DNA of 64,000 nt from Escherichia coli. Its GTDB lineage: Bacteria; Pseudomonadota; Gammaproteobacteria; Enterobacterales; Enterobacteriaceae. The notes below the pieces were generated by a model. The model searched no databases. It was not told the origin of the DNA and saw only the letters and a list, made by a program, of their open reading frames with translations. The stretch lies in the NCBI RefSeq assembly GCF_022846255.1, contig NZ_AP025682.1; one strand, 5' to 3'. Of the stretch, positions 45,267 through 62,117 are shown one piece after another (the first letter of the stretch is position 1; the number at the start of each line of letters is the position of its first letter). The position numbers and the translations under genes are program-made.

Positions 45267-46178
45267 ATGGATGACTGTGGTGCGGTTTTGCATAATATTG
45301 AAACAAAATGGCTTTATGATTTTCTGACCCTGGAAAAATGCCGCAACTTTTCCCAGGCGGCAGTCAGTCGCAACGTCTCGCAACCAGCATTCAGCCGCCG
45401 CATCCGTGCGCTGGAACAGGCGATTGGTGTTGAATTGTTTAACCGCCAGGTAACGCCGCTGCAACTCTCAGAACAAGGGAAAATCTTCCATTCGCAGATC
45501 CGCCATCTGTTGCAACAGTTAGAGAGCAATCTGGCAGAGCTGCGTGGCGGCAGCGATTACGCGCAACGTAAAATCAAGATAGCCGCTGCACACTCTCTTT
45601 CCCTCGGTCTGTTACCGTCCATTATCAGCCAGATGCCGCCGCTCTTTACCTGGGCAATTGAAGCCATTGATGTCGATGAAGCGGTCGATAAACTGCGTGA
45701 AGGGCAAAGTGACTGTATTTTTTCCTTTCACGACGAAGATTTGCTGGAAGCGCCGTTTGACCACATCCGCTTATTTGAATCTCAATTGTTCCCCGTCTGC
45801 GCCAGTGACGAACACGGAGAAGCACTTTTTAACCTCGCTCAGCCACACTTTCCGTTACTGAATTACAGCCGCAACTCCTACATGGGGCGATTGATTAATC
45901 GCACCCTGACGCGCCACAGCGAGTTAAGTTTCAGCACCTTTTTTGTCTCTTCGATGAGCGAGCTATTAAAGCAGGTTGCCCTCGACGGCTGTGGGATTGC
46001 CTGGCTGCCGGAGTATGCCATCCAACAAGAAATTCGCAGCGGGCAGCTCGTTGTACTGAATCGGGACGAACTGGTGATCACGATTCAGGCCTATGCATAC
46101 CGGATGAATACCCGCATGAATCCAGTTGCCGAACGCTTCTGGCGTGAACTGCGCGAGCTGGAGATTGTGCTTAGCTGA
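45267..46178 (+). CDS. hypT: LysR-family transcriptional regulator (hypochlorite-responsive HypT/YjiE)
   Basis: 303 aa; N-terminal LysR HTH; position after iadA as in E. coli. Confidence 0.75.
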   Translation: MDDCGAVLHNIETKWLYDFLTLEKCRNFSQAAVSRNVSQPAFSRRIRALEQAIGVELFNRQVTPLQLSEQGKIFHSQIRHLLQQLESNLAELRGGSDYAQRKIKIAAAHSLSLGLLPSIISQMPPLFTWAIEAIDVDEAVDKLREGQSDCIFSFHDEDLLEAPFDHIRLFESQLFPVCASDEHGEALFNLAQPHFPLLNYSRNSYMGRLINRTLTRHSELSFSTFFVSSMSELLKQVALDGCGIAWLPEYAIQQEIRSGQLVVLNRDELVITIQAYAYRMNTRMNPVAERFWRELRELEIVLS

Positions 46179-46264
46179 CATTATTCTGCAAAACATGGAA
46201 TTTTGACATTAACGCCGGATGGAGATTAATCCATCCGGCAAACGCATTTATTATCTTGAATAAC

Positions 46265-47668
46265 TCAGGCCTTTGCTTCGTTGAAGCGCAGTAAACGGAA
46301 ACCTGTAGAAGCATAGATCAACGCAAATATCATCGAGCAGAAACAGAATACACAGTACGGCAAGTAACTAAACGTCGGCACGCCTAGTGTTGTCGCCATA
46401 TACAATCCGGCAGCTGACCACGGAATAATTGGCGCGCTCATGGTGCCAAAATCTTCCAGCGTTCGGGCTAAGACTAACGGTGATAAATTAAGATCTTCGA
46501 ATTTCTTCATCATCAATTCAGATATAACAATCTTATTCAAACCATCAGAACCGGTAAGTAAGTTAATGATGATCGCTAAAACACCGCTTGCCAGAATAGC
46601 GCCAAAGGCACTTTTTATTTTGTTTGCCGCACTTTGTAATGTGACATCCATCATTCCTGTTCCCGTCAGGATGCCAGCAAACATCATGGCGCAGATAATA
46701 AATGACAGGAATCCGCCCTGATTATTCAGGCCGCCTTGTTCAAGCAGTTCTTTCACAGAAGGTAACAGCGTCGTTGAATCAGTGATCATCGTCAGACGGA
46801 AACCACTCATTGTGGCCTTAATACCTTCGGCCAGCGGGAAACCTTGATACAGCCATCCAACCAATACGGCCACGAACGCACTGCTTAATAATGCCGGTAC
46901 TGTAGGCAAACGCAAAAAGGTAAAGCACAGAACAATAAGCATAGGCAGTAGCGGTAACAGACCAAACTTATATAACTCTTTGAGCTGTACCAGCATCTGC
47001 ATGCTTTCTGGTGAAATAGAGCCCGTAGAAGTATGAATCATTCCCAGCCAGGTAAAAAACAGCAGGCTAATAATCGTTGATGGGATGGTCGTCCAGAGTA
47101 GATATTTAATCAGATCATAAAGTTTAGTTTTGGTTACCGCTGAAGTCAGGTTAGTGGTATCACTTAACGGTGAAAGTTTGTCGCCAAAATAAGCCCCGGT
47201 AACAATGGCTGCCGCCAGAATTGGAAGATCGGCATGTAAGCCGGAACCGATGCCCATTAATGCAACACCAATAGAAGCGACAGATCCCCATGATGCCCCG
47301 GAAACATAGGACAATACTGCGTTCAGAAAAAACGCTATGGCATAAAGCCATGCGGGCGCAACCAGTAACATACCGTAATAAACCAGCATCGGCAGTGTAC
47401 CTGCATAGCTCCATGTCGCGACCATAAAGCCAACGAAAATAACGATAAGTACTGGTGCCATCACCGCCGAAATCTTATCGATAATAAACCCCTGGATTTC
47501 ATCCCAGGTATATTTCAGCTTAGCCATTGCAATAATGCAGGAAAACGCCGCTGAAATTAATAAACAGACGCTGGCAGGCCAGCCCATAACACCGATGCCA
47601 ACAACCAACACGATCATCATAAAAATGATCGGTGTAAGCGCGACATAAAAACTGGGTTTTTCTCTCAT
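46265..47668 (-). CDS. NhaC-family transporter (Na+/H+ antiporter-like)
   Basis: 467 aa polytopic membrane protein; 12 nt upstream of the FAD-oxidoreductase stop (same operon). Confidence 0.65.
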   Translation of the reverse strand: MREKPSFYVALTPIIFMMIVLVVGIGVMGWPASVCLLISAAFSCIIAMAKLKYTWDEIQGFIIDKISAVMAPVLIVIFVGFMVATWSYAGTLPMLVYYGMLLVAPAWLYAIAFFLNAVLSYVSGASWGSVASIGVALMGIGSGLHADLPILAAAIVTGAYFGDKLSPLSDTTNLTSAVTKTKLYDLIKYLLWTTIPSTIISLLFFTWLGMIHTSTGSISPESMQMLVQLKELYKFGLLPLLPMLIVLCFTFLRLPTVPALLSSAFVAVLVGWLYQGFPLAEGIKATMSGFRLTMITDSTTLLPSVKELLEQGGLNNQGGFLSFIICAMMFAGILTGTGMMDVTLQSAANKIKSAFGAILASGVLAIIINLLTGSDGLNKIVISELMMKKFEDLNLSPLVLARTLEDFGTMSAPIIPWSAAGLYMATTLGVPTFSYLPYCVFCFCSMIFALIYASTGFRLLRFNEAKA

Positions 47669-47682
47669 AACTTTATTCCCTG

Positions 47683-49053
47683 TTAAAAGACTTTTACGCC
47701 ATTTTGCTGTAAGCGTTCCTGTACCGTCTGAATATCTACCTGTGAAACGGTAGTGTTATTTTTAATGGCAATAGCAGCGGCAGTCCCTGCACCTTCTCCA
47801 GTGACAATACAACACCCCATATTACGGATTGTCGCGTAGGCGAAATTATCTGCATCGATTGCCCGTCCGCAAACCAACAGGTTTTCAACTTGCTGCGGAA
47901 TCATTACGCCATAAGGGATTTGAAAATAGTTCGCTTCAAGAGGTAATTTAAGATGACCATTTCCATCTATAAACTCAGGGAATACCCCTATTGAATCCGC
48001 ATGACGTCCCTCATTACAAATATCATTTTCAGTTAATTGTGTTCGCCCGAGAATATGTCTTGATTCCCTTGTTCCCACCGTCATACCGAAGTTTTTTAAT
48101 TGTGCCTGTTCAAATCCTGGCTGGAATTGACGCAACGCTTCTATCGCCTGCATGGCTTGTTTGCGGCCCTCTATTTCGGCACGCGTCAGGTCAAAAACAT
48201 CTGTACAATCAACGGCAGGGATGCTGACAACGTTCAAGTAATTCGCATCACCATACTCGGTGACCGTACTCCAGGAACCGCCTAATGTCACATCTTCAGG
48301 AATAATTCCTGCCGCCTTTCCTTTCGCAAAGACTTTACCCAGATAAGGGCTAAACATATCGCGACAAGATTCATGAACATCATAAGACCAGTTTTTATTT
48401 TCTTCATCCGCCCCCCAGTCTCCATATTTAGGTTCCGTGCTCTTAATATTTTGCATGAACGCGTTTTTATTTATATTTGCGCAACTAAAAACGGTTGTCA
48501 TACACATTAGCTCTTCGCGTTCACGCTTAATAAATGGTGCTCCGGCAAACCATGCAATATCAGCATCGCCAGTACAGTCAATAATGACATTTGCCAAAAT
48601 AGCCTGACGACCAGATTTACTCTCTGTTATTACGCCGAGTAAATTATTGCCCTGCTTGATAACATCAACGGCGGTAATGTGTAGTACGCGGCGCACACCT
48701 GCCTGTTCAAGCATTGCATCCGCAACCAGTTTGAAACGCTCGGCGTTAATAGCCTGACTATTCGATTGCGGCTCAGGGCTGGACGCCCCCATTGATTTTG
48801 CCGTTTCTTCTATTTCGCGTGCCAGTCCACCTGACTCTACCGTATTTTCATGACGCCACCAGGCAATTGACTCGACGCCAGCCGTTGTCATCATTCCGCC
48901 AAAACAACCGAAACGTTCAATCAGCATAGTAGCTGCGCCTTCACGAGCGGCACTCATTGCTGCGGCAATACCCGATGGACCACCACCAACAACTAACACT
49001 TCCGTGGTTGCCAGCACAGGTATATTACGAGCGGGTTCCAGATAAAATTCCAT
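47683..49053 (-). CDS. FAD-dependent oxidoreductase
   Basis: 456 aa; N-terminal Rossmann dinucleotide motif VLVVGGGPSGIAAAM; paralogue of the gene at 58207-59571. Confidence 0.7.
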   Translation of the reverse strand: MEFYLEPARNIPVLATTEVLVVGGGPSGIAAAMSAAREGAATMLIERFGCFGGMMTTAGVESIAWWRHENTVESGGLAREIEETAKSMGASSPEPQSNSQAINAERFKLVADAMLEQAGVRRVLHITAVDVIKQGNNLLGVITESKSGRQAILANVIIDCTGDADIAWFAGAPFIKREREELMCMTTVFSCANINKNAFMQNIKSTEPKYGDWGADEENKNWSYDVHESCRDMFSPYLGKVFAKGKAAGIIPEDVTLGGSWSTVTEYGDANYLNVVSIPAVDCTDVFDLTRAEIEGRKQAMQAIEALRQFQPGFEQAQLKNFGMTVGTRESRHILGRTQLTENDICNEGRHADSIGVFPEFIDGNGHLKLPLEANYFQIPYGVMIPQQVENLLVCGRAIDADNFAYATIRNMGCCIVTGEGAGTAAAIAIKNNTTVSQVDIQTVQERLQQNGVKVF

Positions 49054-49339
49054 ACTTTATCTCCGTATTCAATAATTGAGTAAAACAATCCCCCGCGCTT
49101 ATATAAGCGCGTTGATATTTTTAATTATTAACAAGCAACATCATGCTAATACAGACATACAAGGAGATCATCTCTCTTTGCCTGTTTTTTATTATTTCAG
49201 GAGTGTAAACACATTTTCCGCCTCCCTGGCTAATAACCACATTGGCATTTATGGAGCACATCACAATATTTCAATACCATTAAAGCACTGCACCAAAGTG
49301 AAACACTGCGACATTAAAATTATTTCAATTTGAAAAGCA

Positions 49340-51289
49340 TCAATCTGCATGCTCAACATTTGGATAGAGATTATAGATTTTAAGTTTGCGCCATAATGTT
49401 GTACGACCAATTTTTAATACTTCAGCTGCTTTAGTTAGATTCCATTCGCAGACACGACATGTATGCTCAATAGCTTGCATCTCCAATTCTGCCAGTGAAG
49501 TAAGATGAGGGATATCATCGTCGCCACTACTGTTATTTTGTCGGATATCCAGAGGAATATTCTCTAACCCGAGGACAAGTCGATTGCAGTTAATAAATAC
49601 CTTCTCCATTCGATTTTTGAACTCGGAGATGTTCCCAGGCCAACGGTACTCAAGCAGAACTGAATTTGCGTCAGGCGTGATTGTCATTTTTTTTCGAGTG
49701 CGCTCCTGATACTTATCAATAATATCGTCAATCATTTGCTTGAGATCTTCACGACGTTTGCGCAATGGCGGAATTTCAATTTCATTCATGGAGATCTCAT
49801 AATATAGCTGTCGGCTAAAAGCCCCTTGTTGCACGTACTCACGTAAAGAACTACTGGTACATGTAATCAGGCGAAAGCGTACGGGGATCAAACGATGGCT
49901 GTCTGAGCGAGTAACAAGCCCCGTTTTCAATACTTTCAATAAAACACTCTGAACTTCCCCTGATAGATATTCGACTTTATCCAGATATAAGGTGCCATTA
50001 TGAGCCAGTTCAAATTTCGATGGCGAAGGGCCAACATCAGAGCCAAGAAGTTCGTGTAAGATATTTTCTGGTGATAGCATCTGACAATCTACAGAAATAA
50101 ATGGCCCATCACGTTGCTCGCTCTCATTATGTATTGCCATCGCCAAACTCAATTTTCCCACACCTTCTTCGCCATTGATCAAAATCGGAGAGATGGATTT
50201 AATTGCCCGGCGAGCGATAAGTAATACCTGCTTCATACCACCTGAAGCCGCATGTAAACTGTCAAAGGTAAAATTTGCATTAGTGCTTATTTGCTGTTGG
50301 GCTATTTTCCTGATTTTGTCTAATGGATGAAGAAAAAGCAAAAACGAACCATCGCTTAACGGGCGAAGGGTAACCATAAGTTCAATAAATTCGCCACGGC
50401 ATTCGAGGACAATTTGCTTTTGCGATAGTTTGTTTCGTTGTGTAATTGCCTCATTCAAAATCGGCGGAAATACGAATCCTTTTCGGATGTTCTGACCAAT
50501 TAAACTTTCTTTATCAATATTCAGTAATGTTTGTGCTTGAGAATTAACCATCGTAATTAAAGAATGACTATTCCAACAAATAAAACCGTCATCCATACAT
50601 TCAATCACAGCATTATGCTGGCAAAGTACTTTGTTTATTAACTTTTGTTCATTCTCAATATAGATATAATTAGCGATTTCTGTTGCACATGAATATGATG
50701 TTTTTAATTTAACAAGCTCGGCGGTGGTTTCAATTATACATACAATGTATCCATGTATATTACCATAATAATCAATGACCGGAGCTGCGCTCATCGCATA
50801 ACAATGTAGCTGTTCACTAAAATGTTCTGCTCCTTCCAGTTGTGTATATAAATTTGTTTCCCGACAAAGACTATATACATTGGTTCCAATGCCATCTTCG
50901 GCCCATGACATACCAGATTCAATTCCTAACTCTCGCAATTGACTGGAATAATCGCCTGCTGCATTCAACGATAGAACCCAGCCGTGTGGGTCAATGATCA
51001 AAAATGCCAACCGGTCGTCACCAGCCAGGGTGAAATGGTCTTCAACAACTCTTTGTGAAATTCTAATAAACTCTTCGTTACGAGAAAAAATCGTCTGCAA
51101 TGTTTGCCCGGAAGCTTTGACAGGCGTGTTCCAGTGGCGAGGGTCACAATGCTTGAGACATTTTTGCCATGACCTCAGCATCACATGATTAGTCGAATTT
51201 GTCGCGACCCAACCATGCTTAACAAACATTTTCCATTTATTTTTTAGATCATTATGATACGACTCTTTATTCATTATAATAATATCCAT
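49340..51289 (-). CDS. DhaR-like transcriptional regulator (sensing domain + AAA+ sigma-54-interaction-like domain + Fis-type HTH)
   Basis: 649 aa; LINGEEGVGK atypical Walker A, SRQLYY and C-terminal GRTTLWRKLK HTH as in DhaR; no GAFTGA motif seen. Confidence 0.7.
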   Translation of the reverse strand: MDIIIMNKESYHNDLKNKWKMFVKHGWVATNSTNHVMLRSWQKCLKHCDPRHWNTPVKASGQTLQTIFSRNEEFIRISQRVVEDHFTLAGDDRLAFLIIDPHGWVLSLNAAGDYSSQLRELGIESGMSWAEDGIGTNVYSLCRETNLYTQLEGAEHFSEQLHCYAMSAAPVIDYYGNIHGYIVCIIETTAELVKLKTSYSCATEIANYIYIENEQKLINKVLCQHNAVIECMDDGFICWNSHSLITMVNSQAQTLLNIDKESLIGQNIRKGFVFPPILNEAITQRNKLSQKQIVLECRGEFIELMVTLRPLSDGSFLLFLHPLDKIRKIAQQQISTNANFTFDSLHAASGGMKQVLLIARRAIKSISPILINGEEGVGKLSLAMAIHNESEQRDGPFISVDCQMLSPENILHELLGSDVGPSPSKFELAHNGTLYLDKVEYLSGEVQSVLLKVLKTGLVTRSDSHRLIPVRFRLITCTSSSLREYVQQGAFSRQLYYEISMNEIEIPPLRKRREDLKQMIDDIIDKYQERTRKKMTITPDANSVLLEYRWPGNISEFKNRMEKVFINCNRLVLGLENIPLDIRQNNSSGDDDIPHLTSLAELEMQAIEHTCRVCEWNLTKAAEVLKIGRTTLWRKLKIYNLYPNVEHAD

Positions 51290-51543
51290 TCAAGTCATTT
51301 TCAGAACTTGTATCAGAATGCTATGCCAGTAAGCTTGATCAAACGCAATAATATCTAGCCTGGATCATTACAAAAACAGACCTTATCAACAATGTAATCA
51401 CACATACATTAGAAATAATAACCGTTAAAGCAATAAAAAACGAATGATACATTAGATAAATTTTAAAACTGCCAACAACATCTGAAATCTTTGCGTTTGA
51501 TATTTATAATTATTCAAACTGAAACAACACAGGCATACGAGTT

Positions 51544-51558
51544 GTTTCACTGTGAAAC
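51544..51558. promoter_or_regulatory. 15-bp palindrome GTTTCAC-T-GTGAAAC upstream of gcl-like operon (candidate operator)
   Basis: Symmetric except for the centre base; located about 110 bp upstream of the gcl-like ATG in the divergent regulator/operon intergenic region. Confidence 0.35.
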
Positions 51559-51667
51559 AGTGCAGCGAAATTTGTTCTGCCCTTTTATTTCCTCAAAGAT
51601 ATTTCATCGTTAAATTCCAAAATTGACTGACTATTCAACTCAGCGTAAATATCAGGAGAAATAATGT

Positions 51668-53407
51668 ATGGCGAGGATGCGTGCAATCGAAGCTGCAGTA
51701 GAAATACTGAAAAAAGAAGGCATTAGCGTTGCTTTTGGTGTACCCGGCGCAGCAATAAACCCACTCTATGCCGCGATGAAAAAATCAGGCGGTATTGATC
51801 ATATTCTGGCCCGTCATGTTGAGGGCGCCTCGCATATGGCTGAAGGTTACACCCGCAGTCAGAATGGCAATATTGGCGTGTGTATTGGCACATCAGGCCC
51901 TGCGGGCACTGATATGATTACCGGGCTGTATTCTGCCTCTGCGGATTCCATTCCTATTCTCTGCATTACTGGTCAAGCTCCCGTAGGAAAACTTCATAAA
52001 GAAGATTTCCAGGCCGTCGATATTGAGGCTATCGCCACGCCAGTAACCAAAATGGCTCGCACAATTCTCGAAGCGGGTCAGTTGCCGGGGATATTCCAGA
52101 AAGCCTTCTGGGAAATGCGTTCAGGCCGCCCTGGCCCGGTTCTTTTAGATCTCCCTTTTGATGTTCAGATGACCGAAATTGAGTTTGATATCGATCTCTA
52201 TCAGCCACTCACTCCCTGGAAACCCCAGGCGACGCTGGCCCAGGCCGTACGCGCATTAGAAATGCTAAATGACGCCGAAAAGCCCGTCATCATCGCTGGC
52301 GGTGGCATTATTAACGCCGAAGCGAGTGAATTGTTGCGTGAGTTTGTCGAGTTAACTGGCGTTCCCGTCATTCAAACCTTACGCGGTTGGGGCGCTTTAT
52401 CAGACGATCACCCCCTAATGATTGGTCGCATGGGATGTCAGGCGGGTCATCGCTATGGTAACGCCAGTTATCTGGCCTCAGATTTTGTTTTTGGTATCGG
52501 TAACCGTTGGGCAAACCGCCATACCGGAGCCATTGAGACCTACACCGAAGGCCGCAAATTCATTCATGTTGATATCGAACCTGCACAAATTGGCCGGATA
52601 TTTGCGCCGGATCTGGGCATTGTTTCTGATGCTGAAAGCGCCTTAACGCTATTTATTCAGGTCGCCCGTGATATGAAGTCACGTGGAGAACTGAAAGACC
52701 GCAGTCGCTGGATTGCCGAATGTGCCGAGCGTAAACGCACAATGCTTCGTCGTTCAGACTTTGACTGCAATCCAATTAAACCGCAGCGCGTGTATCACGA
52801 AATGAATAAGGTTTTCGGACCGGAGACACGCTATATTTCGACAATTGGTCTGGCGCAAATCGCCGCAAACCAATTTTTACATGTTTACCGCCCACGCCAC
52901 TGGATTAATGCCTGTCAGGCTGGGCCGCTAGGCTGGACAATGCCCGCAGCACTGGGCGCGGTAAAAGCTGATCCATCTGTTCCCGTTGTGGCAATATCCG
53001 GTGATTACGATTTTCAGTTCTTGATTGAAGAATTAGCCGTCGGCGCACAATTTAATCTTCCGTATATCCATATTTTACTTAACAACGCTTATCTTGGTTT
53101 GATTCGTCAATCACAACGTGCATTTGATATTGATTATTGCGTTCAACTGTCATTTGAAAATATTAATGCTCCAGAAATTAATGGTTATGGCGTTGATCAT
53201 AAAGCTGTGGTTGAAGGATTAGGATGTAAAGCGATTCGCGTATTCGCATCACAGGATATTGCGCCTGCACTGCAAGAAGCCCAGCGTTTGCGTGACGAAT
53301 TTCACGTACCTGTTGTTGTGGAAATTATTACTGAACGCGTGACTAATATCGCTATGGGACCTGACATTAATAAAGTCACAGAATTTGAAGAAATTCTCGA
53401 TTTATAA
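51668..53407 (+). CDS. gcl: Glyoxylate carboligase (tartronate-semialdehyde synthase), TPP-dependent
   Basis: 579 aa; N-terminus [39 protein letters not shown]...[18 protein letters not shown] nearly identical in pattern to E. coli Gcl. Confidence 0.85.
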
Positions 53408-53419
53408 GGAAACAGGATT

Positions 53420-54202
53420 ATGGCAAAGTTTGCAGCAAATTTATCTATGCTCTTTACCGAGTATCCATTTATTGAACGTTTTGCACAAGCAAGTCACGCA
53501 GGATTCCACGGCGTTGAGTATCTTTTCCCCTATGACTTTTCCGCAGATGAGTTGGTTTCGCAACTGCATCAACATAATCTGACGCAGGTTCTGTTTAATC
53601 TTCCTGCGGGTAACTGGCAAGAGGGTGAACGGGGTATTGCATGTCATCCTGGTCGGGCAAAAGAATTTCAGGAGGGCGTTTCCAGGGCAATAGAGTATGC
53701 ATTGGCCCTTAATTGTTCACAAGTTAATTGCCTTGCAGGAAAACATCCAGGTGGTTATTCGCATGAACAATGTCATGAAACACTGGTCGAAAATTTGCGC
53801 TATGCAGTAGATAAATTGGCTTCTCATGGCATAAAGTTAGTTCTGGAAGCCATTAATACAAAAGATATTCCCGGTTTTTTTGTTAACAACACCAGACAAG
53901 CTCTCAATATTATTCATGATGTAAATCATCCTGATTTTCGCTATCAATACGATATTTATCATATGCAAATCATGGAAGGGAATATTGCTACAACAATCAA
54001 AAACAACCTGAATAACATTGGACATATTCAATTAGCCGATAACCCTGGGCGTCATGAACCAGGGACGGGAGAAATTAATTACCCGTGGTTGTTAAATTAT
54101 ATAGACCAGATTGGTTATCAGGGATGGATTGGTTGCGAATATGTTCCATCTACGACAACGACTGAAAGTCTACGCTGGCTAAAAAACGAGACTCAATTTT
54201 AA
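53420..54202 (+). CDS. hyi: Hydroxypyruvate isomerase
   Basis: 260 aa; N-terminus MAKFAANLSMLFTEYPFIERF matches Hyi (TIM-barrel); directly downstream of gcl. Confidence 0.8.
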   Translation: MAKFAANLSMLFTEYPFIERFAQASHAGFHGVEYLFPYDFSADELVSQLHQHNLTQVLFNLPAGNWQEGERGIACHPGRAKEFQEGVSRAIEYALALNCSQVNCLAGKHPGGYSHEQCHETLVENLRYAVDKLASHGIKLVLEAINTKDIPGFFVNNTRQALNIIHDVNHPDFRYQYDIYHMQIMEGNIATTIKNNLNNIGHIQLADNPGRHEPGTGEINYPWLLNYIDQIGYQGWIGCEYVPSTTTTESLRWLKNETQF

Positions 54203-54219
54203 TCCCTGAGGTATTTATC

Positions 54220-55107
54220 ATGAATATTGGATTTATCGGCACCGGCATAATGGGTAAGCCGATGGCTTATAATTTACAACAAGCCGGACATACTCTTTAT
54301 TTTTCAGCGCATTTTGAACCTGCACCGCAAGAGCTTATTGGTGAACGTGGCATTGTTTGCTCTACACCGCGTGAAGTCGCGCAGGAGTGTGAGGTCATCA
54401 TCACCATGCTCCCTGATACCCCACATGTTGAGGATGTTCTTTTTCATCCCAACTATGGCGTAATACACGGTTTAAGCCACGGGAAAATTGTGATTGATAT
54501 GAGTTCAATTTCCCCGGTTGCCACCAAAGCATTTGCACAACGTATTATCGCGGGAGGCGCGGAATATATCGATGCGCCCGTCTCTGGCGGTGAAGTTGGC
54601 GCGAAAGCCGGGACGCTTTCCATTATGGTTGGCGGATGTGAAGAGGTTTATTTGCAGATCAAACCGATTCTGGAATTGATGGGTAAAAATATCACTCTGG
54701 TCGGTAACGTCGGTGATGGTCAAACGTGCAAAGTCGCTAACCAAATTATTGTTGCACTGAATATTGAAGCGGTGGCTGAAGCCCTGCTCTTTGCCAGTAA
54801 ATCAGGTGCCGATCCCGCCCGCGTACGTGAAGCGCTGATGGGAGGGTTTGCCTCCTCTCGCGTGCTGGAAGTTCATGGCGAACGGATGATTAAAGGAACA
54901 TTCGAACCCGGTTTTCGTATTAGTCTGCATCAAAAAGATCTGAATCTGGCGCTGGAGAATGCCCGCCTGTTGAATACCCCGCTTCCTAACACGGCGACGA
55001 CACAGCAGTTATTTAGCGCCTGCGCCGCGCTCGGTGGTAAAGAGTGGGATCATTCTGCGTTAATTCGGGCGCTTGAAACACAAGCCAATTTCACTATCCG
55101 TAAATAA
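54220..55107 (+). CDS. glxR: Tartronate semialdehyde (2-hydroxy-3-oxopropionate) reductase
   Basis: 295 aa; NAD-binding GFIGTGIMGKPMAYNL at N-terminus; 3-hydroxyisobutyrate dehydrogenase family. Confidence 0.8.
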   Translation: MNIGFIGTGIMGKPMAYNLQQAGHTLYFSAHFEPAPQELIGERGIVCSTPREVAQECEVIITMLPDTPHVEDVLFHPNYGVIHGLSHGKIVIDMSSISPVATKAFAQRIIAGGAEYIDAPVSGGEVGAKAGTLSIMVGGCEEVYLQIKPILELMGKNITLVGNVGDGQTCKVANQIIVALNIEAVAEALLFASKSGADPARVREALMGGFASSRVLEVHGERMIKGTFEPGFRISLHQKDLNLALENARLLNTPLPNTATTQQLFSACAALGGKEWDHSALIRALETQANFTIRK

Positions 55108-55181
55108 TGAATTAAGGGAACCACCGGTTCCCTTCGTTCACTCATTGCCCTGCCCCATTCCCCTATTTTGAGAGACCTGCT

Positions 55182-56324
55182 ATGAAGATAGTTATCTCCC
55201 CCGACTCCTTTAAAGAATGCCTTCCTGCATGGAAAGTCGCCGAAGCGCTGGCAACCGGCTGGCGCAAGGTCCTGCCTGGCAGCCAACTGGTGTGTTTGCC
55301 CGTGGCTGATGGCGGCGAAGGCACGCTCGAAACACTCATTCATGCGACTGACGGTACGTTTTACACTAAAAAAGTCACCGGACCGCTTGGCGAATCAATA
55401 CATGCGCAATACGGTATTTTAGGCAACCAAACCACCGCAGTGATAGAACTGGCACAAGCTTCAGGGCTGGAACTGGTTTCTCCTGTCCAGCGTTCTCCCC
55501 TTTATACGACGTCGTTTGGCACTGGCGAACTTATTCTCGCCGCCCTGGAACACAATATTGATACCGTTATTCTATGCCTGGGTGGCAGTGCTACAAATGA
55601 TGGCGGTATTGGGTTGATGTCGGCACTTGGCGCATCGTTTACAGACGCCGAAGGGCTATCAGTCTCTGTTAATGGGATGGGGCTGGCGGCAATTCACCAC
55701 ATTGACTTACAGCACCTCGATCCACGATTGAAAAATGTGAAATTTATTGCGGCCTGTGATGTCACCAACCCACTAACCGGCGATAACGGCGCGACCCGGG
55801 TTTTTGCTCAACAAAAAGGGGCCAGTGCTAACGACCTTGAGCAACTGGAACAGGGAATGAAAAACTATGCCCGTTGCATCTACCGTTGTTGTGGTAAAGA
55901 CGTCGATACGATACCCGGTTCTGGGGCGGCTGGCGGCGTTGGCGCGGCCTTGATGGCTTTTCTCGATGCTCGCTTACAACCGGGTATTTCGCTCGTGCTG
56001 GAAGCGATTCAATATACCCAACATTTAAAATACGCAGCATTGGCCATTGTCGGTGAAGGGAAATTAGATAGTCAGAGCCTGAATGGCAAAGCGCCCGTAG
56101 GCGCAGCCAAAGTTGCCCAGATGATGGGCGTTCCGGTTATCGCAATTGCCGGGTATATCGATGATCAACTTGATCTGAATGAGTTACGCCAGTGTGGAAT
56201 AGAAGCCTGTTTTTCCGTCGTCAATGGTCCTTGTGATTTCCCCACCGCGCTGAGTCAGGGAGAAAATAATTTAATTCGTCTTGGGGAAAATCTGGCGGGA
56301 TATTTTCGTGCGATCCTGAGTTAA
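55182..56324 (+). CDS. Glycerate kinase
   Basis: 380 aa; N-terminus MKIVISPDSFKECL characteristic of GlxK/GarK glycerate kinases. Confidence 0.8.
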   Translation: MKIVISPDSFKECLPAWKVAEALATGWRKVLPGSQLVCLPVADGGEGTLETLIHATDGTFYTKKVTGPLGESIHAQYGILGNQTTAVIELAQASGLELVSPVQRSPLYTTSFGTGELILAALEHNIDTVILCLGGSATNDGGIGLMSALGASFTDAEGLSVSVNGMGLAAIHHIDLQHLDPRLKNVKFIAACDVTNPLTGDNGATRVFAQQKGASANDLEQLEQGMKNYARCIYRCCGKDVDTIPGSGAAGGVGAALMAFLDARLQPGISLVLEAIQYTQHLKYAALAIVGEGKLDSQSLNGKAPVGAAKVAQMMGVPVIAIAGYIDDQLDLNELRQCGIEACFSVVNGPCDFPTALSQGENNLIRLGENLAGYFRAILS

Positions 56325-56379
56325 TTCCCGTTCGTTAAAATGCCCGATAATGCAAATTACCGGGCATTCCTGAATATCA

Positions 56380-57906
56380 TTATTCATCTCTCGCGGTTTT
56401 CTCTTCAGCCGCAAGCTGTGTCAAAAAACTCTTCAATAAAATAAACACTACGCCGCAAAGCGGTAGTCCGGCCAGGATAGAGACCGTTTGTAGCGGCTGC
56501 AAACTCTGCGCATCAAGAAGATAGAGTGTGATGGCGACGATTCCAGTCATAATCAACCAAAATGCCACGTTCCAGAATGCCGGTTCACTCTCACTATCTG
56601 CCCGTTTTTGCGTCGCAAAACCGAGGGCATAACCCACAGTACAGTGTCCGGTAATATATGAAATTAATGCTATAGCCCCAAAAGCAACCAAAAACACCTG
56701 ACTTGCGGGTAGCTGCTCCAGTAAACGAGAAACGACAACGCCTCGCCCTTGTTCGTTAAGTATGGGAACAAAATCGATGACATGAGTTGTCTGCAACGAT
56801 AAGCCGAAATTAGCCAGTACCATGTAAAAAAACATGCATCCCAATGAACCTGCCAGAGCTCCACATACAATCAATTGCCGGATCGTCCTTCCTTTTGAAA
56901 TACGGGCGATAAATAAACCGAATGGGATGGCATACACGACCCACCATGAAAAATAAAATACGGTCCACATCTGTGGAAATCCGCTACGACCAATAGCATC
57001 GGTACTTAAACTCATCGCTACAAAATTTTGCAGCATCAGGCCGAGACCATCAATTGATTGATTAAGTATAAATGCCGTTGGTCCACAAATCAGTATTGCA
57101 AGTAGCATCAAAATGTCAGCACGAATATTCCAGTTACTGGCCCATGCCACACCTTTTTTAAGTCCAAAAAAGAGAATGAATAATGGCACTAGCGTCCAGA
57201 TAAAAATAACCATGACATTGATAAACTGCCCGGCAGGATCCAGATGAAACACATGGCAAAATACGGCAGAAATCATCGGCGTTCCCAGCGCCAGAGACGT
57301 TACCGCGCCGCCGAGCAAACCAAACATGTAGAAAAAATTCACACAATGCCCGCAAAAACCATCCGCACGCGCTCCCAAACATCCACGACATAAATCACTG
57401 ACCTTTAATGAGTTTGTTTTCTTAACATGCATAAACCAACCAATAGGAACGGCACAAATCAGATACCACGCCCATGCGGACGGCCCCCAATGGAACATGC
57501 CATAAGCAGAGGCCCAACGAGCAGCCTGAGCGCTTCCTGCTGTTGCGCCAAAAGGCGGTTGCTGAATGATCCAAATCCACTCTACAGAGGCCAGATATAA
57601 CAAGCTGCCCCCCGTTCCAGAAGTAAAAATAAGTCCAAGCCAGGTTAACAAGCTGAAGTCAGGTTTTTCTCCCGACTGACCTAACAAGATATCGCCATAA
57701 CGTGAGAAGGCCAGCCACAGACAACAAAGTACAACCAGAAAAATCCCGCCCATTTCCCAGGTTAAAAAATGATGTATTTTATTTATATACCGGCTGGTAT
57801 CTTGTGGATATATCGTCAAACACAGAATGATTACCGCAATAAATAATATTGCTGGGATAAACACATTCAGTTCAATCAAAGAAAAGCGTTTTTTTAAATA
57901 TTGCAT
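56380..57906 (-). CDS. BCCT-family transporter (betaine/carnitine/choline-type)
   Basis: About 508 aa from MQYLKKRF with AGGAG RBS; BCCT signature WTVFYFSWWVVYAIPFGLFIARISKGRTIRQL. Confidence 0.75.
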   Translation of the reverse strand: MQYLKKRFSLIELNVFIPAILFIAVIILCLTIYPQDTSRYINKIHHFLTWEMGGIFLVVLCCLWLAFSRYGDILLGQSGEKPDFSLLTWLGLIFTSGTGGSLLYLASVEWIWIIQQPPFGATAGSAQAARWASAYGMFHWGPSAWAWYLICAVPIGWFMHVKKTNSLKVSDLCRGCLGARADGFCGHCVNFFYMFGLLGGAVTSLALGTPMISAVFCHVFHLDPAGQFINVMVIFIWTLVPLFILFFGLKKGVAWASNWNIRADILMLLAILICGPTAFILNQSIDGLGLMLQNFVAMSLSTDAIGRSGFPQMWTVFYFSWWVVYAIPFGLFIARISKGRTIRQLIVCGALAGSLGCMFFYMVLANFGLSLQTTHVIDFVPILNEQGRGVVVSRLLEQLPASQVFLVAFGAIALISYITGHCTVGYALGFATQKRADSESEPAFWNVAFWLIMTGIVAITLYLLDAQSLQPLQTVSILAGLPLCGVVFILLKSFLTQLAAEEKTARDE

Positions 57907-57929
57907 TTCAGTCTCCTGAATGTTTTCAT

Positions 57930-58154
57930 TCAATGAGGACGAATATTTCGCCGTTCCTTTTTCATGTGTTGCAATTGTCGGGAAAGGCGTAAAGAAAAAA
58001 AGGCGCAAATAAGTGAAAGAGCCGCAATACAATACAGAGCTAAACCACGCTGATGCTGTTGCAGCATGAACAGGAATATCCCCAAAAAGAGGCCGCAGAG
58101 AACTGTGGTTATCCAGTAATTGGCACTTAAGTGCTCCAGGTCATCATCCCTCAT
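57930..58154 (-). CDS. Small two-TM membrane protein upstream of BCCT transporter
   Basis: 74 aa from MRDDDLEHLSANYWITTVLCGLFLGIFLF with AGGAG RBS 7 nt upstream; two hydrophobic helices. Confidence 0.45.
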   Translation of the reverse strand: MRDDDLEHLSANYWITTVLCGLFLGIFLFMLQQHQRGLALYCIAALSLICAFFSLRLSRQLQHMKKERRNIRPH

Positions 58155-58206
58155 GGTCTTTCTCCTGCAAGGCGCAGACAGGCTTTCAGCTCTCTGCGCC
58201 TTGTTG

Positions 58207-59571
58207 TTATGCCAGACGTACGCCCTGCTGTTGCAGCGTGTTTTGCAAATCAGGGATAGCAACCTGACGCACGGTGCAATTTTGCTGTAGCGAAACCACG
58301 GCGGCAGTACCTGCGGCCTCACCGGTAACGGCACAACACATCATGTTACGCATAGAAGTATGTGCAACTACGCCTGCGGAAATACAGCGACCGGCGACCA
58401 AAAGGTTCTCCACTTTTTGCGGCACCAGACAACCATAAGGGATCTGAAAGAAACGCCCGGTCGTTGGCAAAATGAGATAACCGGAACCATCAATAAATTC
58501 CGGGAAAATCCCTACACTGTCCGAACAACGCCCCTGATTAAGGACGTAATCATCAGCAATACGTATTTCCCCCTCAATAAGCCGTGATTCACGCGTCCCC
58601 AGCGTGGCACCAAAATTGCGTAACCGTACATTTTCAAAGCCCGGAACATAATGGCGTAGAGCGTCAATTGCCCATAATGCTTGCTGCCTTCCGGCAATCT
58701 CAGCTTTGGTTAAATCGAAGACATCGGTACAGTCAAAACCAAAGGCGTACACCATATTCATCTGGAAAGCCTCACCGCTTTCAGAAAAGGTCGACCAGGT
58801 TCCGGCAATCGCCTGGGCGTCACCTGGAATCACACCATCCTGTTGCGCGCGGGTAAAAATATCCTCCATATACGGGCTAAACATCGGGTCTTCTTTACCC
58901 GTGGTTTGAATCGTCCAGTTTTTGCCCCAATCCGCGTAGGTCGGCTTAAGTTCTTCCGCAACAAAACGGTTAAAGCGTGCCACATCAACACCTGCGCAAC
59001 TGAACATCACGGTGACGCCCATCAGTTGGTCCTTGCTCCGTTTCGTCCAGGGCGCGCCTGCACGAGCGGCAATATCAGCATCCCCCGTGCAATCGACGAT
59101 TCTTTTCGCCAGAATTGCCCCTCGACCTGATTTATTCTCGACGATAACACCGCATAACGTATTCCCGTCCTTGATCACGTCCACAACCCAGGAGTGATAT
59201 AACGGCTCAACGCCAGATTCCGTAATCATCTGATCGGCGACAACTTTAAATCCTTCAGTATCTATAACTTCGCTAATTGACTGAGGTTCTGGTCGTGTGA
59301 AGCCCAATGCTCGCGCGCGGCCTTCATATTCACGACAAATCCCTTCACAATCTTCCGTCCCCGGATGGCGATACCAGGCAAAACTTTCCACACCAACCTG
59401 CGTCAATACGCCGCCTAGTGAGCCGTAACGCTCAACAATCATGGTTCTGGCACCTAGCCGCCCCGCCGCTATCGCCGCCGTTAATCCTGCCGGACCGCCC
59501 CCGATAACCAGAACGTCCGTTTGTGCAATGACTGGCGTTTGCCGTGCACTTTCATTAATCATGTCCACCAT
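58207..59571 (-). CDS. FAD-dependent oxidoreductase (paralogue of 47683-49053)
   Basis: About 454 aa from MVDMINES; dinucleotide motif VLVIGGGPAGLTAAIAA; shared CTGDADIA and GVESxAW motifs with the paralogue. Confidence 0.7.
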   Translation of the reverse strand: MVDMINESARQTPVIAQTDVLVIGGGPAGLTAAIAAGRLGARTMIVERYGSLGGVLTQVGVESFAWYRHPGTEDCEGICREYEGRARALGFTRPEPQSISEVIDTEGFKVVADQMITESGVEPLYHSWVVDVIKDGNTLCGVIVENKSGRGAILAKRIVDCTGDADIAARAGAPWTKRSKDQLMGVTVMFSCAGVDVARFNRFVAEELKPTYADWGKNWTIQTTGKEDPMFSPYMEDIFTRAQQDGVIPGDAQAIAGTWSTFSESGEAFQMNMVYAFGFDCTDVFDLTKAEIAGRQQALWAIDALRHYVPGFENVRLRNFGATLGTRESRLIEGEIRIADDYVLNQGRCSDSVGIFPEFIDGSGYLILPTTGRFFQIPYGCLVPQKVENLLVAGRCISAGVVAHTSMRNMMCCAVTGEAAGTAAVVSLQQNCTVRQVAIPDLQNTLQQQGVRLA

Positions 59572-59588
59572 TGGTTCCCCCGTCAGAT

Positions 59589-60857
59589 TCAGGATGCGCA
59601 ATCCGCATTGTTTTGAGTGATTTCATTGACTTGATTTTTACTTTTACGATTCACACGCTGGAGGACCAGTGCGGCGATAAGGCCGATGAATGCGCAAACC
59701 AACATGAACAGGAAAACATCCTGATAACCGGCAATACCCGGTTTGCGGTCGACCATATTGCCCACCATCGTGTAGCAGTAGATTTCCGGGAAATAGGTCA
59801 GTAAAGAGATCAGACCCGCAGCAGTCCCTGTGACTTTTGCCGGGATCCGAACCTCATCAATAATTGAGAAGAACACGGCATTCGCAGAGTAAATAAACAC
59901 GCCCAACGCAACCATATTCGCCAGCGCAATAGTGACGTAGCGCGACTCACCGGGCAGGAAGAAATAAACGGTAGTAAAGACAATCATGCCGATAAAGGCG
60001 TAAATCATAAAACGCGTGCGTGACGCACAGCGGTCGGCCAGTTGTCCGCCAATTAATCCCCCCATCGCAAATAACACATAGGCGCGAAGAATACTGGCAA
60101 CTGCCACTTCCGATTCGCCCATATGCAGGATCTGCGTGAGATACGGCGTGACCATGCCAAAGCCGATATAAATTGACCACATACAAAAGGTCACAACACC
60201 TGCCAGCCAAACCGTCGGCATTTTCAGCACGAATGCCATATCTGCCAGACGGAAATTCGCTTTATCTTCGCTGTGCGTTTCATCCTGACAAACAAACCAG
60301 GCTAAAACACCGGCCAGAATAGTCACTACGGAATAAAAAATAATTGTCGCCCGTAAACCATCAACACCTTCGCCAAATTTGGCAAATACCGGCACGGAAA
60401 GAAATCCCAGTACAATGGAGGTTAATCCCTTACCCAGAAACCAGTAACCGTATAAGCGACCTTGTTCTTCGCTGGTTCCCAGGGTACGAATAATTCGCAC
60501 ACACACGGCCCAAAACGTAAATACGGTTGTAACAGCCCAAAGTGCATGTAACAAACAGATCATGGTATACGAGGGGAAGGTCGCATAATAAAAACCACTT
60601 ATCCCGGTGGAAATTAATGAAAAGGTCATTAATTTACGTGCAGAAAATCTATCGGCAGCCCAACCGCCAGGTAGATATAATAAAAAGTTCACCAGACCAT
60701 AGGCTGTCATTAGAAAACCAAGTTCAGCATTAGTCGCTCCTGTAGCCTGCTGCATCGCGTCGTAATAGGTTTCCCGTAAATAAGGCAATTTATATATTGC
60801 ACTTCCGGCAATACCACATAACGCCAGCGTGATCCAACGTTTCCAGTTACTGGTCAT
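59589..60857 (-). CDS. MFS-family transporter
   Basis: 422 aa, about 12 TM helices; between the glycerol-dehydrogenase-family gene and the FAD oxidoreductase. Confidence 0.75.
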   Translation of the reverse strand: MTSNWKRWITLALCGIAGSAIYKLPYLRETYYDAMQQATGATNAELGFLMTAYGLVNFLLYLPGGWAADRFSARKLMTFSLISTGISGFYYATFPSYTMICLLHALWAVTTVFTFWAVCVRIIRTLGTSEEQGRLYGYWFLGKGLTSIVLGFLSVPVFAKFGEGVDGLRATIIFYSVVTILAGVLAWFVCQDETHSEDKANFRLADMAFVLKMPTVWLAGVVTFCMWSIYIGFGMVTPYLTQILHMGESEVAVASILRAYVLFAMGGLIGGQLADRCASRTRFMIYAFIGMIVFTTVYFFLPGESRYVTIALANMVALGVFIYSANAVFFSIIDEVRIPAKVTGTAAGLISLLTYFPEIYCYTMVGNMVDRKPGIAGYQDVFLFMLVCAFIGLIAALVLQRVNRKSKNQVNEITQNNADCAS

Positions 60858-60922
60858 ATTTATTCCCGAATGAAGTATTTAAAATGACACCAACGGCCTG
60901 CTTTGCACAGGCCGTATTATTT

Positions 60923-62005
60923 TTAAAGTCCCAAATGATGTGCAGTTAAAATTGCACAAAGAACGTCCTGCGCTGTTACTACGAATGGCATATTATGGAT
61001 AGTTTCCCCTTCAGCAGTCGCGGCTTTAGCCACTGCCCGTAATTTATCTTTATTAATTTCCTTCACGCCTAACATATGAAGATTTGTCGGCAAGCCAACG
61101 CTATGGCAGAAATTGAGTACGGTTTCAATTTCCTCCTGTGGTGCGTTTTCCAGTACGAGCTGTACCAGGACGCCAAATGCCACTTTTTCACCGTGGTAGC
61201 AATGATGGCATTCCTCCAGTTGCGTCATGCCGTTATGAATGGCATGAGCTGCCGCCAGGCCGCTACTTTCAAATCCAATGCCGCTAAGATAGGTATTAGC
61301 TTCGATAATATTCTCTACCGCTTTGGTGCTAACACCTTGTTCAACCGCGACTTTTGCCTTATAGCCATCTTCCAGTAGCGTGGTATAACAGAGTCGGGCA
61401 ATAGCCAGTGCCGCCAGTGTCGACGCCCCACCTGCCATTGTGGCTTTTCCTGACGCCTGATTGGCTCTCGCCTCAAACCAGGTTGACAATGCATCTCCCA
61501 TACCGGCCACCAGCAGACGCACTGGCGCGGCTGAAATGACGCCAGTATCCATAATCACCATATCCGGGTTTTTCGGGAAAAACAGATATTCGCTAAACTG
61601 ACCTTCCGGGGTGTAAATTACCGCCAGAGAACTGGTTGGCGCATCTGTGGAAGCAATTGTCGGCACCACCACCACCGGAATTTTTTGGTAATACGCTACG
61701 GCTTTTGCCGTATCCAACGTTTTACCGCCGCCAATACCAATAACGACATTATATTTACGCTGATTAAATTTCTCACGAATTCGAGAAATTTCATTTTGCG
61801 AGCATTCACCACAAAAGATATCAAAATCTGCAGTAATATTTTCTTTTGCAAAGCTCTGGCTTACTCTGTCACCCACCAGACCGGTCACAAATTCATCTGC
61901 AATAATTAATGGTTCTGTTCCCAAACTCGCCGCATATGTAGCAATATTATCCAGAGAACCATTTCCCTGGATATATTTAGCCGGACTTATAATAATCTTA
62001 TCCAT
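60923..62005 (-). CDS. Glycerol dehydrogenase family (iron-containing/group III polyol dehydrogenase)
   Basis: 360 aa; GldA-like N-terminus MDKIIISPAKYIQG, GGGKTLDTAK NAD-binding motif; GAGGA RBS. Confidence 0.8.
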   Translation of the reverse strand: MDKIIISPAKYIQGNGSLDNIATYAASLGTEPLIIADEFVTGLVGDRVSQSFAKENITADFDIFCGECSQNEISRIREKFNQRKYNVVIGIGGGKTLDTAKAVAYYQKIPVVVVPTIASTDAPTSSLAVIYTPEGQFSEYLFFPKNPDMVIMDTGVISAAPVRLLVAGMGDALSTWFEARANQASGKATMAGGASTLAALAIARLCYTTLLEDGYKAKVAVEQGVSTKAVENIIEANTYLSGIGFESSGLAAAHAIHNGMTQLEECHHCYHGEKVAFGVLVQLVLENAPQEEIETVLNFCHSVGLPTNLHMLGVKEINKDKLRAVAKAATAEGETIHNMPFVVTAQDVLCAILTAHHLGL

Positions 62006-62117
62006 ATCATTCCTCGCGTAACTTGTTTTGCTTCACTGTTAACCTACTCGTTGCATCCAGTAGCGGCAAACATTTCATTCGCGAAAAATTATGTTTTATG
62101 ATCGCGCTGTAAAAAAC

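Follow-up and report, generated by a model that had tools for sequence, protein, structure and literature searches.

Two anciently diverged flavoenzymes, IbeA and CglE, and their conserved transporter partners in the GimA island of Escherichia coli

This study concerns a 64,000-nucleotide stretch of Escherichia coli DNA (NCBI RefSeq assembly GCF_022846255.1, contig NZ_AP025682.1; hereafter the window), in which two genes, ibeA and cglE, encode related flavin adenine dinucleotide (FAD)-dependent oxidoreductases beside genes for secondary transporters. The locus is the GimA island of extraintestinal pathogenic E. coli (ExPEC), and its genes are already named and annotated. New here are the ancient paralogy of the two enzymes, the conserved transporter partner of each, and a gene combination that recurs outside E. 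coli. We put at about even the chances that IbeA and CglE, together with their transporters, form modules that take up small zwitterionic nitrogen solutes, oxidize them in the cytoplasm, and thereby feed C2/C3 metabolism; the chemistry is the less certain part of this reading.

Two full-length paralogous flavoenzymes

The genes of the two enzymes and of their transporter neighbors are as follows (aa, amino acids; ORF, open reading frame).

47683-49053, minus strand: ibeA, FAD-dependent oxidoreductase of Pfam family PF12831, 456 aa, ATG start, no signal peptide
58207-59571, minus strand: cglE, FAD-dependent oxidoreductase of PF12831, 454 aa from the ATG at 59571, paralog of ibeA
46265-47668, minus strand: ibeT, NhaC-family secondary transporter, TIGR00931 at 379.9 bits against a cut-off of 370 (only just above)
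56380-57906, minus strand: cglC, BCCT transporter, 508 aa, PF02028 with E 4.4e-115 over model positions 1-483 of 485
57930-58154, minus strand: predicted membrane ORF of 74 aa between cglE and cglC, "hypothetical protein" in strain MS20657
59589-60857, minus strand: cglT, MFS transporter with weak matches to the PgtP and galactonate-transporter subfamilies

The original prediction, made from the sequence without database searches, held that the proteins encoded at 47683-49053 and 58207-59571 are paralogs sharing several conserved blocks. Both reading frames were confirmed on the minus strand, that of cglE extending to 59601 if a TTG start is taken, and the blocks VLV(V/I)GGGP(S/A)G, GVES(I/F)AW, DCTGDADIA, and ENLLV(C/A)GR are all present in the BLASTP alignment. 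The similarity is not limited to the Rossmann motif: the alignment spans essentially the full length of both proteins, with 232 identities in 452 residues (51%), 70% positives, 7 gaps, and an E value of 7e-171. The Pfam call likewise gave the same family end to end, PF12831 (FAD_oxidored) matching model positions 1-416 of 416 in IbeA (E 3.2e-93) and in CglE (E 2.2e-97).

A GxGxxG dinucleotide-binding motif stands at the N-terminus of both proteins (VVGGGPSG in IbeA and VIGGGPAG in CglE), and the match to Pyr_redox_2 is confined to residues 18-58 and 19-52, respectively. No CxxxxC redox disulfide was visible on reading either sequence, and no second NAD(P)H-binding Rossmann domain was detectable with Pfam; the name pyridine nucleotide-disulfide oxidoreductase, which some databases give to homologs, was rejected on these two grounds. 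RefSeq names the ibeA product [quoted passage not shown]. According to two later papers (PMC13192267, PMC12940985), Paris et al. (2024, FEBS J 291:177) described IbeA as an FAD-binding homodimer with a structural relationship to FAD-dependent oxidoreductases.

An AlphaFold2 model of IbeA, built from a 37-sequence family alignment, depicts a soluble two-domain flavoprotein (predicted local distance difference test score, pLDDT, 90.4; predicted template modeling score, pTM, 0.92). The FAD-binding beta-alpha-beta fold begins at residue 13-17 (strand 13-22, helix 26-37), and neither the sequence of IbeA nor its model contains an export signal or a membrane segment. As they lack a signal peptide, IbeA and CglE should be cytoplasmic. 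Residues H125, R297, R329, R397, R410, and C415, among others, are invariant in the family alignment, and an anionic moiety of the substrate may find its match in several of the conserved arginines.

Ancient duplication and a transporter partner for each copy

A protein search with IbeA returned 4760 relatives at E <= 1e-20. Those in the upper identity range (68-93%) come from E. albertii, Citrobacter, Pluralibacter, Serratia, Photobacterium, and Vibrio; the IbeA-type proteins of Serratia and Vibrio span 68-89%. A second plateau lies at 45-56% identity, and CglE falls there. In pairwise comparison with both paralogs, proteins of Serratia sp. S1B (76%) and Vibrio jasicida (68%) belong to the IbeA clade, and a second V. 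jasicida protein (78%) joins those of Vibrio sp. VB16 (73%), Polycladidibacter (73%), and Endozoicomonas (68%) in the CglE clade. Identity between the clades is 51-56%. Vibrio proteins are closer to the two E. coli copies (68% for IbeA, 78% for CglE) than these copies are to each other (51%), and a recent in situ duplication was therefore rejected; judged from these identities, IbeA and CglE are ancient copies, each in its own clade, and not the products of a local event.

As had been predicted, the two enzyme genes have secondary transporters of different families as close neighbors; each of these is encoded on the strand of its enzyme gene. An NhaC-family gene does lie 3' of ibeA, with a spacing that needs correction: ibeT starts 14 nt past the ibeA stop, not 12. 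The predicted succession of the second enzyme, a small membrane protein, and a BCCT transporter holds, with a 52-nt gap from cglE to the 74-aa ORF and a 23-nt gap from there to cglC. A third transporter had been overlooked; the MFS gene cglT, likewise on the minus strand, stops 17 nt short of the cglE start, which gives cglE two (MFS and BCCT). The phrase "duplicated enzyme-transporter pairs" is right for the enzyme only, since the transporters come from unrelated families.

These pairings are kept in other bacteria. An IbeT ortholog occurs in the gene run of every IbeA-clade locus inspected: in Serratia (73% identity) it lies directly downstream of the IbeA ortholog, and in V. jasicida (60% identity) it lies upstream in the same co-directional run, with a gene for a PatB-type C-S lyase between them. 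A CglC-type BCCT gene adjoins the CglE-type gene in every CglE-clade locus inspected (V. jasicida, Vibrio sp. VB16, Polycladidibacter, and Endozoicomonas), and these transporters form a tight group, with a mean column identity of 67% in an alignment of CaiT, CglC, and five BCCTs of other bacteria. As for the third transporter, Serratia has a CglT ortholog (82% identity), and in Woeseia an MFS protein with 31% identity follows the family member in the same run. This clade-specific pairing shows that the duplication is old and that each enzyme copy co-evolved with its transporter, which is the strongest support for the idea of enzyme-transporter modules. The predicted "uptake/oxidation module", left without a named substrate, fits these comparative data.

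Linkage to C2/C3 metabolism in other bacteria

In several distant bacteria that carry these enzymes, genes for dihydroxyacetone (DHA)/glycerol metabolism (gldA and dhaKLM) and, usually, for glyoxylate/hydroxypyruvate metabolism (gcl-hyi-glxR) recur beside them. V. jasicida has, in order, genes for a BCCT, a CglE-type enzyme, a divergent 445-aa PF12831 protein, a cyclophilin-like protein, an NhaC transporter, a C-S lyase, and an IbeA-type enzyme, followed by gldA, dhaK-dhaL-dhaM/ptsI, a DhaR-type regulator, and gcl. The locus of Vibrio sp. VB16 holds gldA, dhaKLM, and genes for a porin, a BCCT, a CglE-type enzyme, a 425-aa paralog, a cyclophilin-like protein, and a methyl-accepting chemotaxis protein, as well as gcl-hyi-glxR and a DhaR-type regulator. 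Citrobacter sp. NCU1 combines gcl-hyi-glxR-glxK, dhaKLM, gldA, a small ORF, the FAD enzyme, and an MFS gene; Serratia combines cglT, gldA, dhaKLM, and the ibeA-ibeT pair. Outside the Gammaproteobacteria, a metagenome-assembled genome (MAG) of Oscillospiraceae has a co-directional series of gldA, fused dhaKL, the FAD enzyme, TRAP dctPQM, and a BCCT gene, with eutABC adjacent. This repeated association across Gammaproteobacteria and a Firmicute suggests that the flavoenzyme-transporter modules are functionally coupled to the assimilation of DHA/glycerol and of glyoxylate/hydroxypyruvate.

The locus as the GimA island

Positions 46200-62100 of the window (15.9 kb) were found whole by megablast in 246 of the 5426 complete E. 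coli genomes, in a single chromosomal copy, with best identities to annotated loci of at least 99%. The RefSeq order is nhaC, ibeA, dhaR, gcl, hyi, 2-hydroxy-3-oxopropionate reductase, glycerate kinase, BCCT, hypothetical protein, FAD-dependent oxidoreductase, MFS transporter, glycerol dehydrogenase, and dhaK-dhaL-ptsP, and the span is bounded by hypT (yjiE) and iraD (yjiD). The ibeA and cglE genes each occur in exactly 246 genomes; therefore, they travel together in E. coli.

GimA was published as an island between yjiD and yjiE with a G+C content of 46.2% and the operons ptnIPKC, cglDTEC, gcxKRCI, and ibeRAT (PMC2878320). The island part of the window matches this G+C content (45.5%, against 50.8% elsewhere in the window), and all the genes of cglDTEC, gcxKRCI, and ibeRAT are present, along with dhaK. 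At the insertion site, hypT lies directly beside ibeT; the iraD side is past the window end and is present in the 99%-identical locus of strain MS20657. In site, gene order, operons, and low GC, the locus agrees with the GimA of meningitic, avian, and adherent-invasive E. coli (AIEC) (Huang et al. 2001; Homeier et al. 2010, PMC2878320). There is no essential difference, except that the window stops within the GimA1 operon. The remaining genes of the island and its flank are listed below.

45267-46178, plus strand: hypT (yjiE), LysR regulator, NCBIfam NF007488 (HypT) at 693 bits against a cut-off of 301
49340-51274, minus strand: ibeR, DhaR-type regulator, NF008485 (DhaR) at 985.8 bits against a cut-off of 551
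51668-53407, plus strand: gcl, glyoxylate carboligase, first gene of GimA3, from the annotation of the 99%-identical MS20657 locus
53420-54202, plus strand: hyi, hydroxypyruvate isomerase, from the MS20657 annotation
54220-55107, plus strand: 2-hydroxy-3-oxopropionate (tartronate semialdehyde) reductase, from the MS20657 annotation
55182-56324, plus strand: glycerate kinase, from the MS20657 annotation
60923-62005, minus strand: cglD, glycerol dehydrogenase (GldA-like), NF006941 at 560.7 bits against a cut-off of 336
62325-63395, plus strand: dhaK, GimA1 (ptn operon), from the MS20657 annotation and a collinear alignment to the MS20657 locus
from near 63441: dhaL, leaving the window

The hypT gene, also annotated as such in MS20657, is the chromosomal flank that marks one island border and lies outside the island. 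IbeR is encoded 286 nt from ibeA. It has no GAFTGA-like motif on a motif check and its Walker A motif is degenerate (GEEGVGKL); thus, it is probably not a sigma-54-dependent ATPase activator. DhaR of E. coli K-12 acts without sigma-54 and is likewise not known to carry GAFTGA.

Shine-Dalgarno-like sequences precede the starts of ibeT, the 74-aa ORF, cglC, and cglE, and a simple scan of the minus strand found no terminator-like sites at the ibeA-ibeT junction or at the junctions of cglT, cglE, the small ORF, and cglC. Co-transcription of ibeA-ibeT and of cglT-cglE-small ORF-cglC is plausible from this arrangement and agrees with the published operons. A GC-rich palindrome (ACGGCCTG...CAGGCCGT) lies at 60893-60915, inside the 65-nt gap between cglD and cglT, and could serve the cglDTEC operon as an attenuator inside it or as a site of RNA processing.

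The 74-aa ORF has a homolog with 42% identity in Citrobacter sp. NCU1 (locus L093, 9389-9604), between the gldA and FAD-enzyme genes. Small ORFs at comparable spots in Serratia, Vibrio, and Oscillospiraceae are unrelated to it. The idea that 57930-58154 is a remnant of the second flavoprotein gene of Vibrio was rejected, as the ORF has its own Citrobacter homolog and no similarity to the other small neighbors.

Several further features of the window were observed. The stretch 56380-59500 (cglC-cglE) is the least conserved of the island (97.9-98.5% identity, against 99.3-99.9% elsewhere), and cglC has a 15-nt indel relative to strain MS20657. Positions 1-46000 hold the hpa operon, tsr, btsT, a type I restriction-modification (hsd) region, and yjiN/yjiR through iadA and hypT; for parts of this region the best complete-genome matches are only 95-97.5% identical at 85-96% coverage. 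Low-GC stretches outside the island lie at 1-2 kb (40%) and 30-32 kb (37.6%).

Residues of the transporters

The positions aligned to W142, W147, Y150, W316, W323, W324, and Y327 of CaiT are invariant in CglC and the five other flavoenzyme-linked BCCTs. In the CaiT and BetP structures, W142, W147, Y150, W323, W324, and Y327 form the box that binds the trimethylammonium head group. CaiT R262 and M331, which stand in for the sodium sites, are replaced in CglC by N and F, respectively. A CaiT-like antiporter signature was therefore rejected for CglC, and nothing in these residues supports CaiT-type exchange. For IbeT, the ArcD model scores 291 bits; the NhaC family of Na+/H+ antiporters also contains solute exchangers such as ArcD, and the conserved placement beside a flavoenzyme suggests that the substrate of IbeT may be organic.

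The wider family and its neighborhoods

A scan of species-representative genomes found at least 579 relatives, of which 80 loci were kept, and the neighboring genes were clustered in 68 loci (family loci are numbered with an L). The loci kept include Anaerolineae and other Chloroflexi, Desulfobacterales, Lokiarchaeota, Oscillospiraceae, SAR11, SAR92, SAR116, many roseobacters, Woeseia, and Acidimicrobiia, at 44-52% identity. AFDB50 contains algal relatives with 38-47% identity (Cladocopium goreaui, Emiliania huxleyi, Chrysochromulina tobinii, and Chrysophaeum taylorii), a more distant one in Chloropicon, and one match in a rotifer assembly.

Among the 68 clustered loci, the co-directional run of the family member includes Opp/Dpp-type ABC importers in nine, 2-oxoglutarate-Fe(II) oxygenases (confirmed by Pfam) in eight, and class V aminotransferases related to AGXT, PhnW, and BhcA in seven. 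BCCT transporters occur in the same run at five loci and nearby at eight. Class III aminotransferases are found in the run at three loci, from Roseibium, and the choline dehydrogenase BetA in SAR116 and Halieaceae. MttB-superfamily methyltransferases occur in the run three times, with an M20 peptidase nearby. In MAGs of Anaerolineales (L021, L023/L092, L032), an MttB gene (non-Pyl type, 275 bits to the trimethylamine methyltransferase model) lies directly upstream of the flavoenzyme gene, and L092 also has a folate/biopterin-type MFS gene; in a Comamonas MAG (L041), an MttB gene adjoins the flavoenzyme gene on the opposite strand.

In a SAR92 MAG (L025, 7273-17086), genes for a BCCT, a nitroreductase-like protein, the FAD enzyme, BKACE, carnitine 3-dehydrogenase (709.5 bits against a cut-off of 592), acyl-CoA dehydrogenase, and ADP-forming acyl-CoA synthetase stand together; the family member apparently belongs to a carnitine catabolic operon. 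The common thread of the neighborhoods would be the metabolism of small nitrogen-containing zwitterions and quaternary amines; many neighborhoods bear no relation to it, and the assignment is soft. An Rfam scan of 13 family loci for a riboswitch that would name the ligand found nothing that reached the gathering score.

Specific substrates were also considered: sarcosine/dimethylglycine, N-carboxymethyl amines, and serinol/serine derivatives, and likewise carnitine/gamma-butyrobetaine/crotonobetaine, deacylated betaine-lipid head groups, and sulfonates. None was singled out, since the neighborhoods are heterogeneous.

A divergent second flavoprotein outside E. coli

Beyond E. coli, the usual companion of a CglE-type gene is one for a second PF12831 protein, highly divergent (22-31% identity) and 425-445 aa long (L007, 5056-6393; L095, 11444-12721; L008, 11402-12679; also L011, L012, L017, L038, and L086). 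The 425-aa form is found in co-directional runs of Chloroflexi, Polycladidibacter, and Vibrio. The Vibrio loci additionally contain a cyclophilin-like protein of about 123 aa (PF04126; L095, 12735-13109). The GimA of E. coli has neither the second PF12831 protein nor the cyclophilin-like protein. The regular company outside E. coli suggests that the CglE-type and second PF12831 proteins may form a heteromeric enzyme. Heteromeric flavoenzymes that oxidize amines are known, such as sarcosine oxidase, flavin-containing opine dehydrogenase, and archaeal L-proline dehydrogenase; however, there is no sequence relationship to them beyond the FAD motif, both subunits here would be PF12831 rather than DAO or Pyr_redox_2 proteins, and in E. 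coli the 452-aa type occurs alone. The likeness is one of analogy and does not place IbeA and CglE in that group.

Discussion

From the conserved transporters and neighborhoods, we infer a substrate class of small zwitterionic nitrogen solutes. Each transporter would import such a solute, related to quaternary or N-alkyl amines (the neighborhood of betaine, carnitine, and choline), and in the cytoplasm the FAD enzyme would dehydrogenate it, a C-N bond being the most likely site. The order of genes in Chloroflexi operons, with an ABC importer, two flavoproteins, and an aminotransferase, suggests that an N-substituted amine is cleaved oxidatively first and its product transaminated next. The C2/C3 carbonyls released (glyoxylate, hydroxypyruvate, or DHA) may then enter the gcl-hyi-glxR-glycerate kinase pathway and that of gldA with dhaKLM. 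The DhaR-type regulator IbeR may control the set and thereby couple its expression to DHA, and the virulence and H2O2 phenotypes of ibeA mutants would be indirect consequences of this metabolism.

A number of results weigh against such uptake and oxidation or against its details. Our literature searches found no substrate for any family member, the AFDB50 relatives are all uncharacterised, and NCBIfam has no model for the family of either flavoenzyme, only matches to the Rossmann motif. Searches on PF12831 and on the combination of gcl, BCCT, DHA kinase, and FAD oxidoreductase yielded nothing useful, and in the open-access literature no paper was found that discusses cglE or its relation to ibeA. 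PDB searches with IbeA and with the 37-sequence family profile matched only the N-terminal FAD motif, and there is thus no solved structure of IbeA or a close relative. In Foldseek, the IbeA model reached a TM-score of at most about 0.5 against the PDB, and the structurally nearest enzymes are reductases, namely geranylgeranyl reductase, FixC, and urocanate and fumarate reductases. Many family members also come from strict anaerobes. Both observations fit a reductive role too, and the fold of IbeA, as modeled, does not tell an oxidative role from a reductive one. CglC falls below the cut-off of the NCBIfam BCCT model TIGR00842 (354.5 bits against 407.55), as well as that of its nearest curated model, CaiT (NF002887, 385.6 bits against 541). 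GimA lacks an aminotransferase, a methyltransferase, and an aldehyde dehydrogenase, and the proposal does not account for one solute giving both glyoxylate and a C3 unit. Finally, the family neighborhoods are heterogeneous, with most neighbor genes in no recurrent cluster across the 68 loci, so that the substrate class is itself soft.

The main rival, which we regard as rather unlikely, makes the module an electron sink. The flavoenzymes would be reductases that use the NADH made by GldA in a fermentative glycerol-to-DHA metabolism; the solute that they reduce would be imported in an unsaturated or oxidised form, such as a compound resembling crotonobetaine, and the transporter would swap substrate for product, as in CaiT/CaiA. 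The commonness of the family in strict anaerobes such as Desulfobacterales, Anaerolineae, Lokiarchaeota, and Oscillospiraceae favors this explanation, as do the reductases among the structural neighbors and the repeated linkage to gldA-dhaKLM, the NADH-producing fermentative branch of glycerol metabolism. It also accords with the carnitine/gamma-butyrobetaine antiporter CaiT being the nearest curated model to CglC, and with the inclusion of exchangers such as ArcD in the NhaC family. However, many members occur in aerobes (SAR11, SAR92, SAR116, and roseobacters), whose catabolic operons contain ABC or TRAP importers, which allow no product exchange, together with aminotransferases or carnitine dehydrogenase. 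CglC has N and F in place of CaiT R262 and M331, and no NAD(P)H-binding second domain was detected.

Two further explanations were weighed. IbeA, and perhaps CglE, might act mainly on an endogenous redox metabolite against H2O2 and macrophage stress, the transporters being functionally unrelated. Greater sensitivity to H2O2 is reported for mutants of ibeA, ibeR, and GimA (PMC4359115; Flechard 2012, as cited in later papers), and reviews suggest that IbeA modulates the intramacrophage environment (PMC13192267). Nevertheless, we think this improbable: the enzyme-transporter pairing is kept from E. coli to Vibrio, Endozoicomonas, and alphaproteobacteria, family members are encoded in operons for nutrient uptake in marine bacteria and archaea that live free and never encounter macrophages, and the proteins have no thiol-disulfide CxxxxC motif. 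In the classical view, IbeA is a surface-exposed invasin that binds vimentin, PSF, and Caspr1, and cglE would be an unrelated housekeeping paralog. A large literature on IbeA-dependent invasion and receptor binding stands behind this view, which is by now largely refuted and in our estimate highly improbable. A protein with no signal peptide or membrane segment, an FAD-binding fold from residue 17, and a confident full-length flavoenzyme model (pLDDT 90) is at odds with it, and relatives with 45-55% identity occur in non-pathogens, archaea, and algae. IbeA has moreover been characterized as a homodimeric FAD-binding enzyme (Paris 2024, as cited in later papers), and its present RefSeq name is that of an intracellular-survival oxidoreductase. 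The reduced type 1 fimbriae and H2O2 sensitivity of ibeA mutants are described in Cortes 2008 and Flechard 2012, as cited in later papers.

Cytoplasmic uptake and oxidation by IbeA and CglE can also be compared with known systems. Similar to the cai operon, in which CaiT and the flavoenzyme CaiA act on a quaternary amine, GimA has a BCCT whose nearest curated model is CaiT beside a flavoenzyme. Unlike CaiA, an acyl-CoA dehydrogenase, CglE is a two-domain PF12831 flavoprotein; genes for a CoA-transferase or ligase are absent from the island, and CglC differs from CaiT in its score and in the two residues discussed above. The accessory genes of GimA are paralogs of the dhaR-dhaKLM, gldA, and gcl-hyi-glxR...glxK modules of E. 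coli K-12, but their cluster in GimA also takes in two PF12831 flavoenzymes and three transporters. On the K-12 map, no such flavoenzymes or transporters are known to lie next to those modules. The enlarged combination of the GimA type recurs in Vibrio, Serratia, and Citrobacter. As to the enzymes, geranylgeranyl reductases (3oz2, 3atq) and FixC (7koe) are only 13-20% identical, reach Foldseek TM-scores of about 0.45-0.5, and superpose on IbeA only in the FAD domain; the substrate domain of IbeA has no close solved counterpart.

As a genome-scan finding, the locus itself is ordinary and already described. Its interest lies in ibeA being a widely used virulence marker of ExPEC and AIEC: the conserved transporters and the linkage to DHA and glyoxylate genes argue that GimA is a nutrient-utilization island, and the comparison narrows the search for its substrate to small zwitterionic nitrogen solutes. 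The family reaches from E. coli and Vibrio to SAR11, roseobacters, Chloroflexi, Lokiarchaeota, and haptophyte and dinoflagellate algae. More speculatively, and with appreciable doubt, this ubiquitous but biochemically undescribed flavoenzyme family might perform a hitherto unrecognised step by which zwitterionic or quaternary-amine osmolytes are turned over; in that case, GimA would serve the catabolism of such a solute from the host or its diet, and the "invasin" phenotypes would be metabolic side effects. The identity of the substrate would explain a 25-year-old virulence factor and annotate thousands of homologs in marine and anaerobic microbes.

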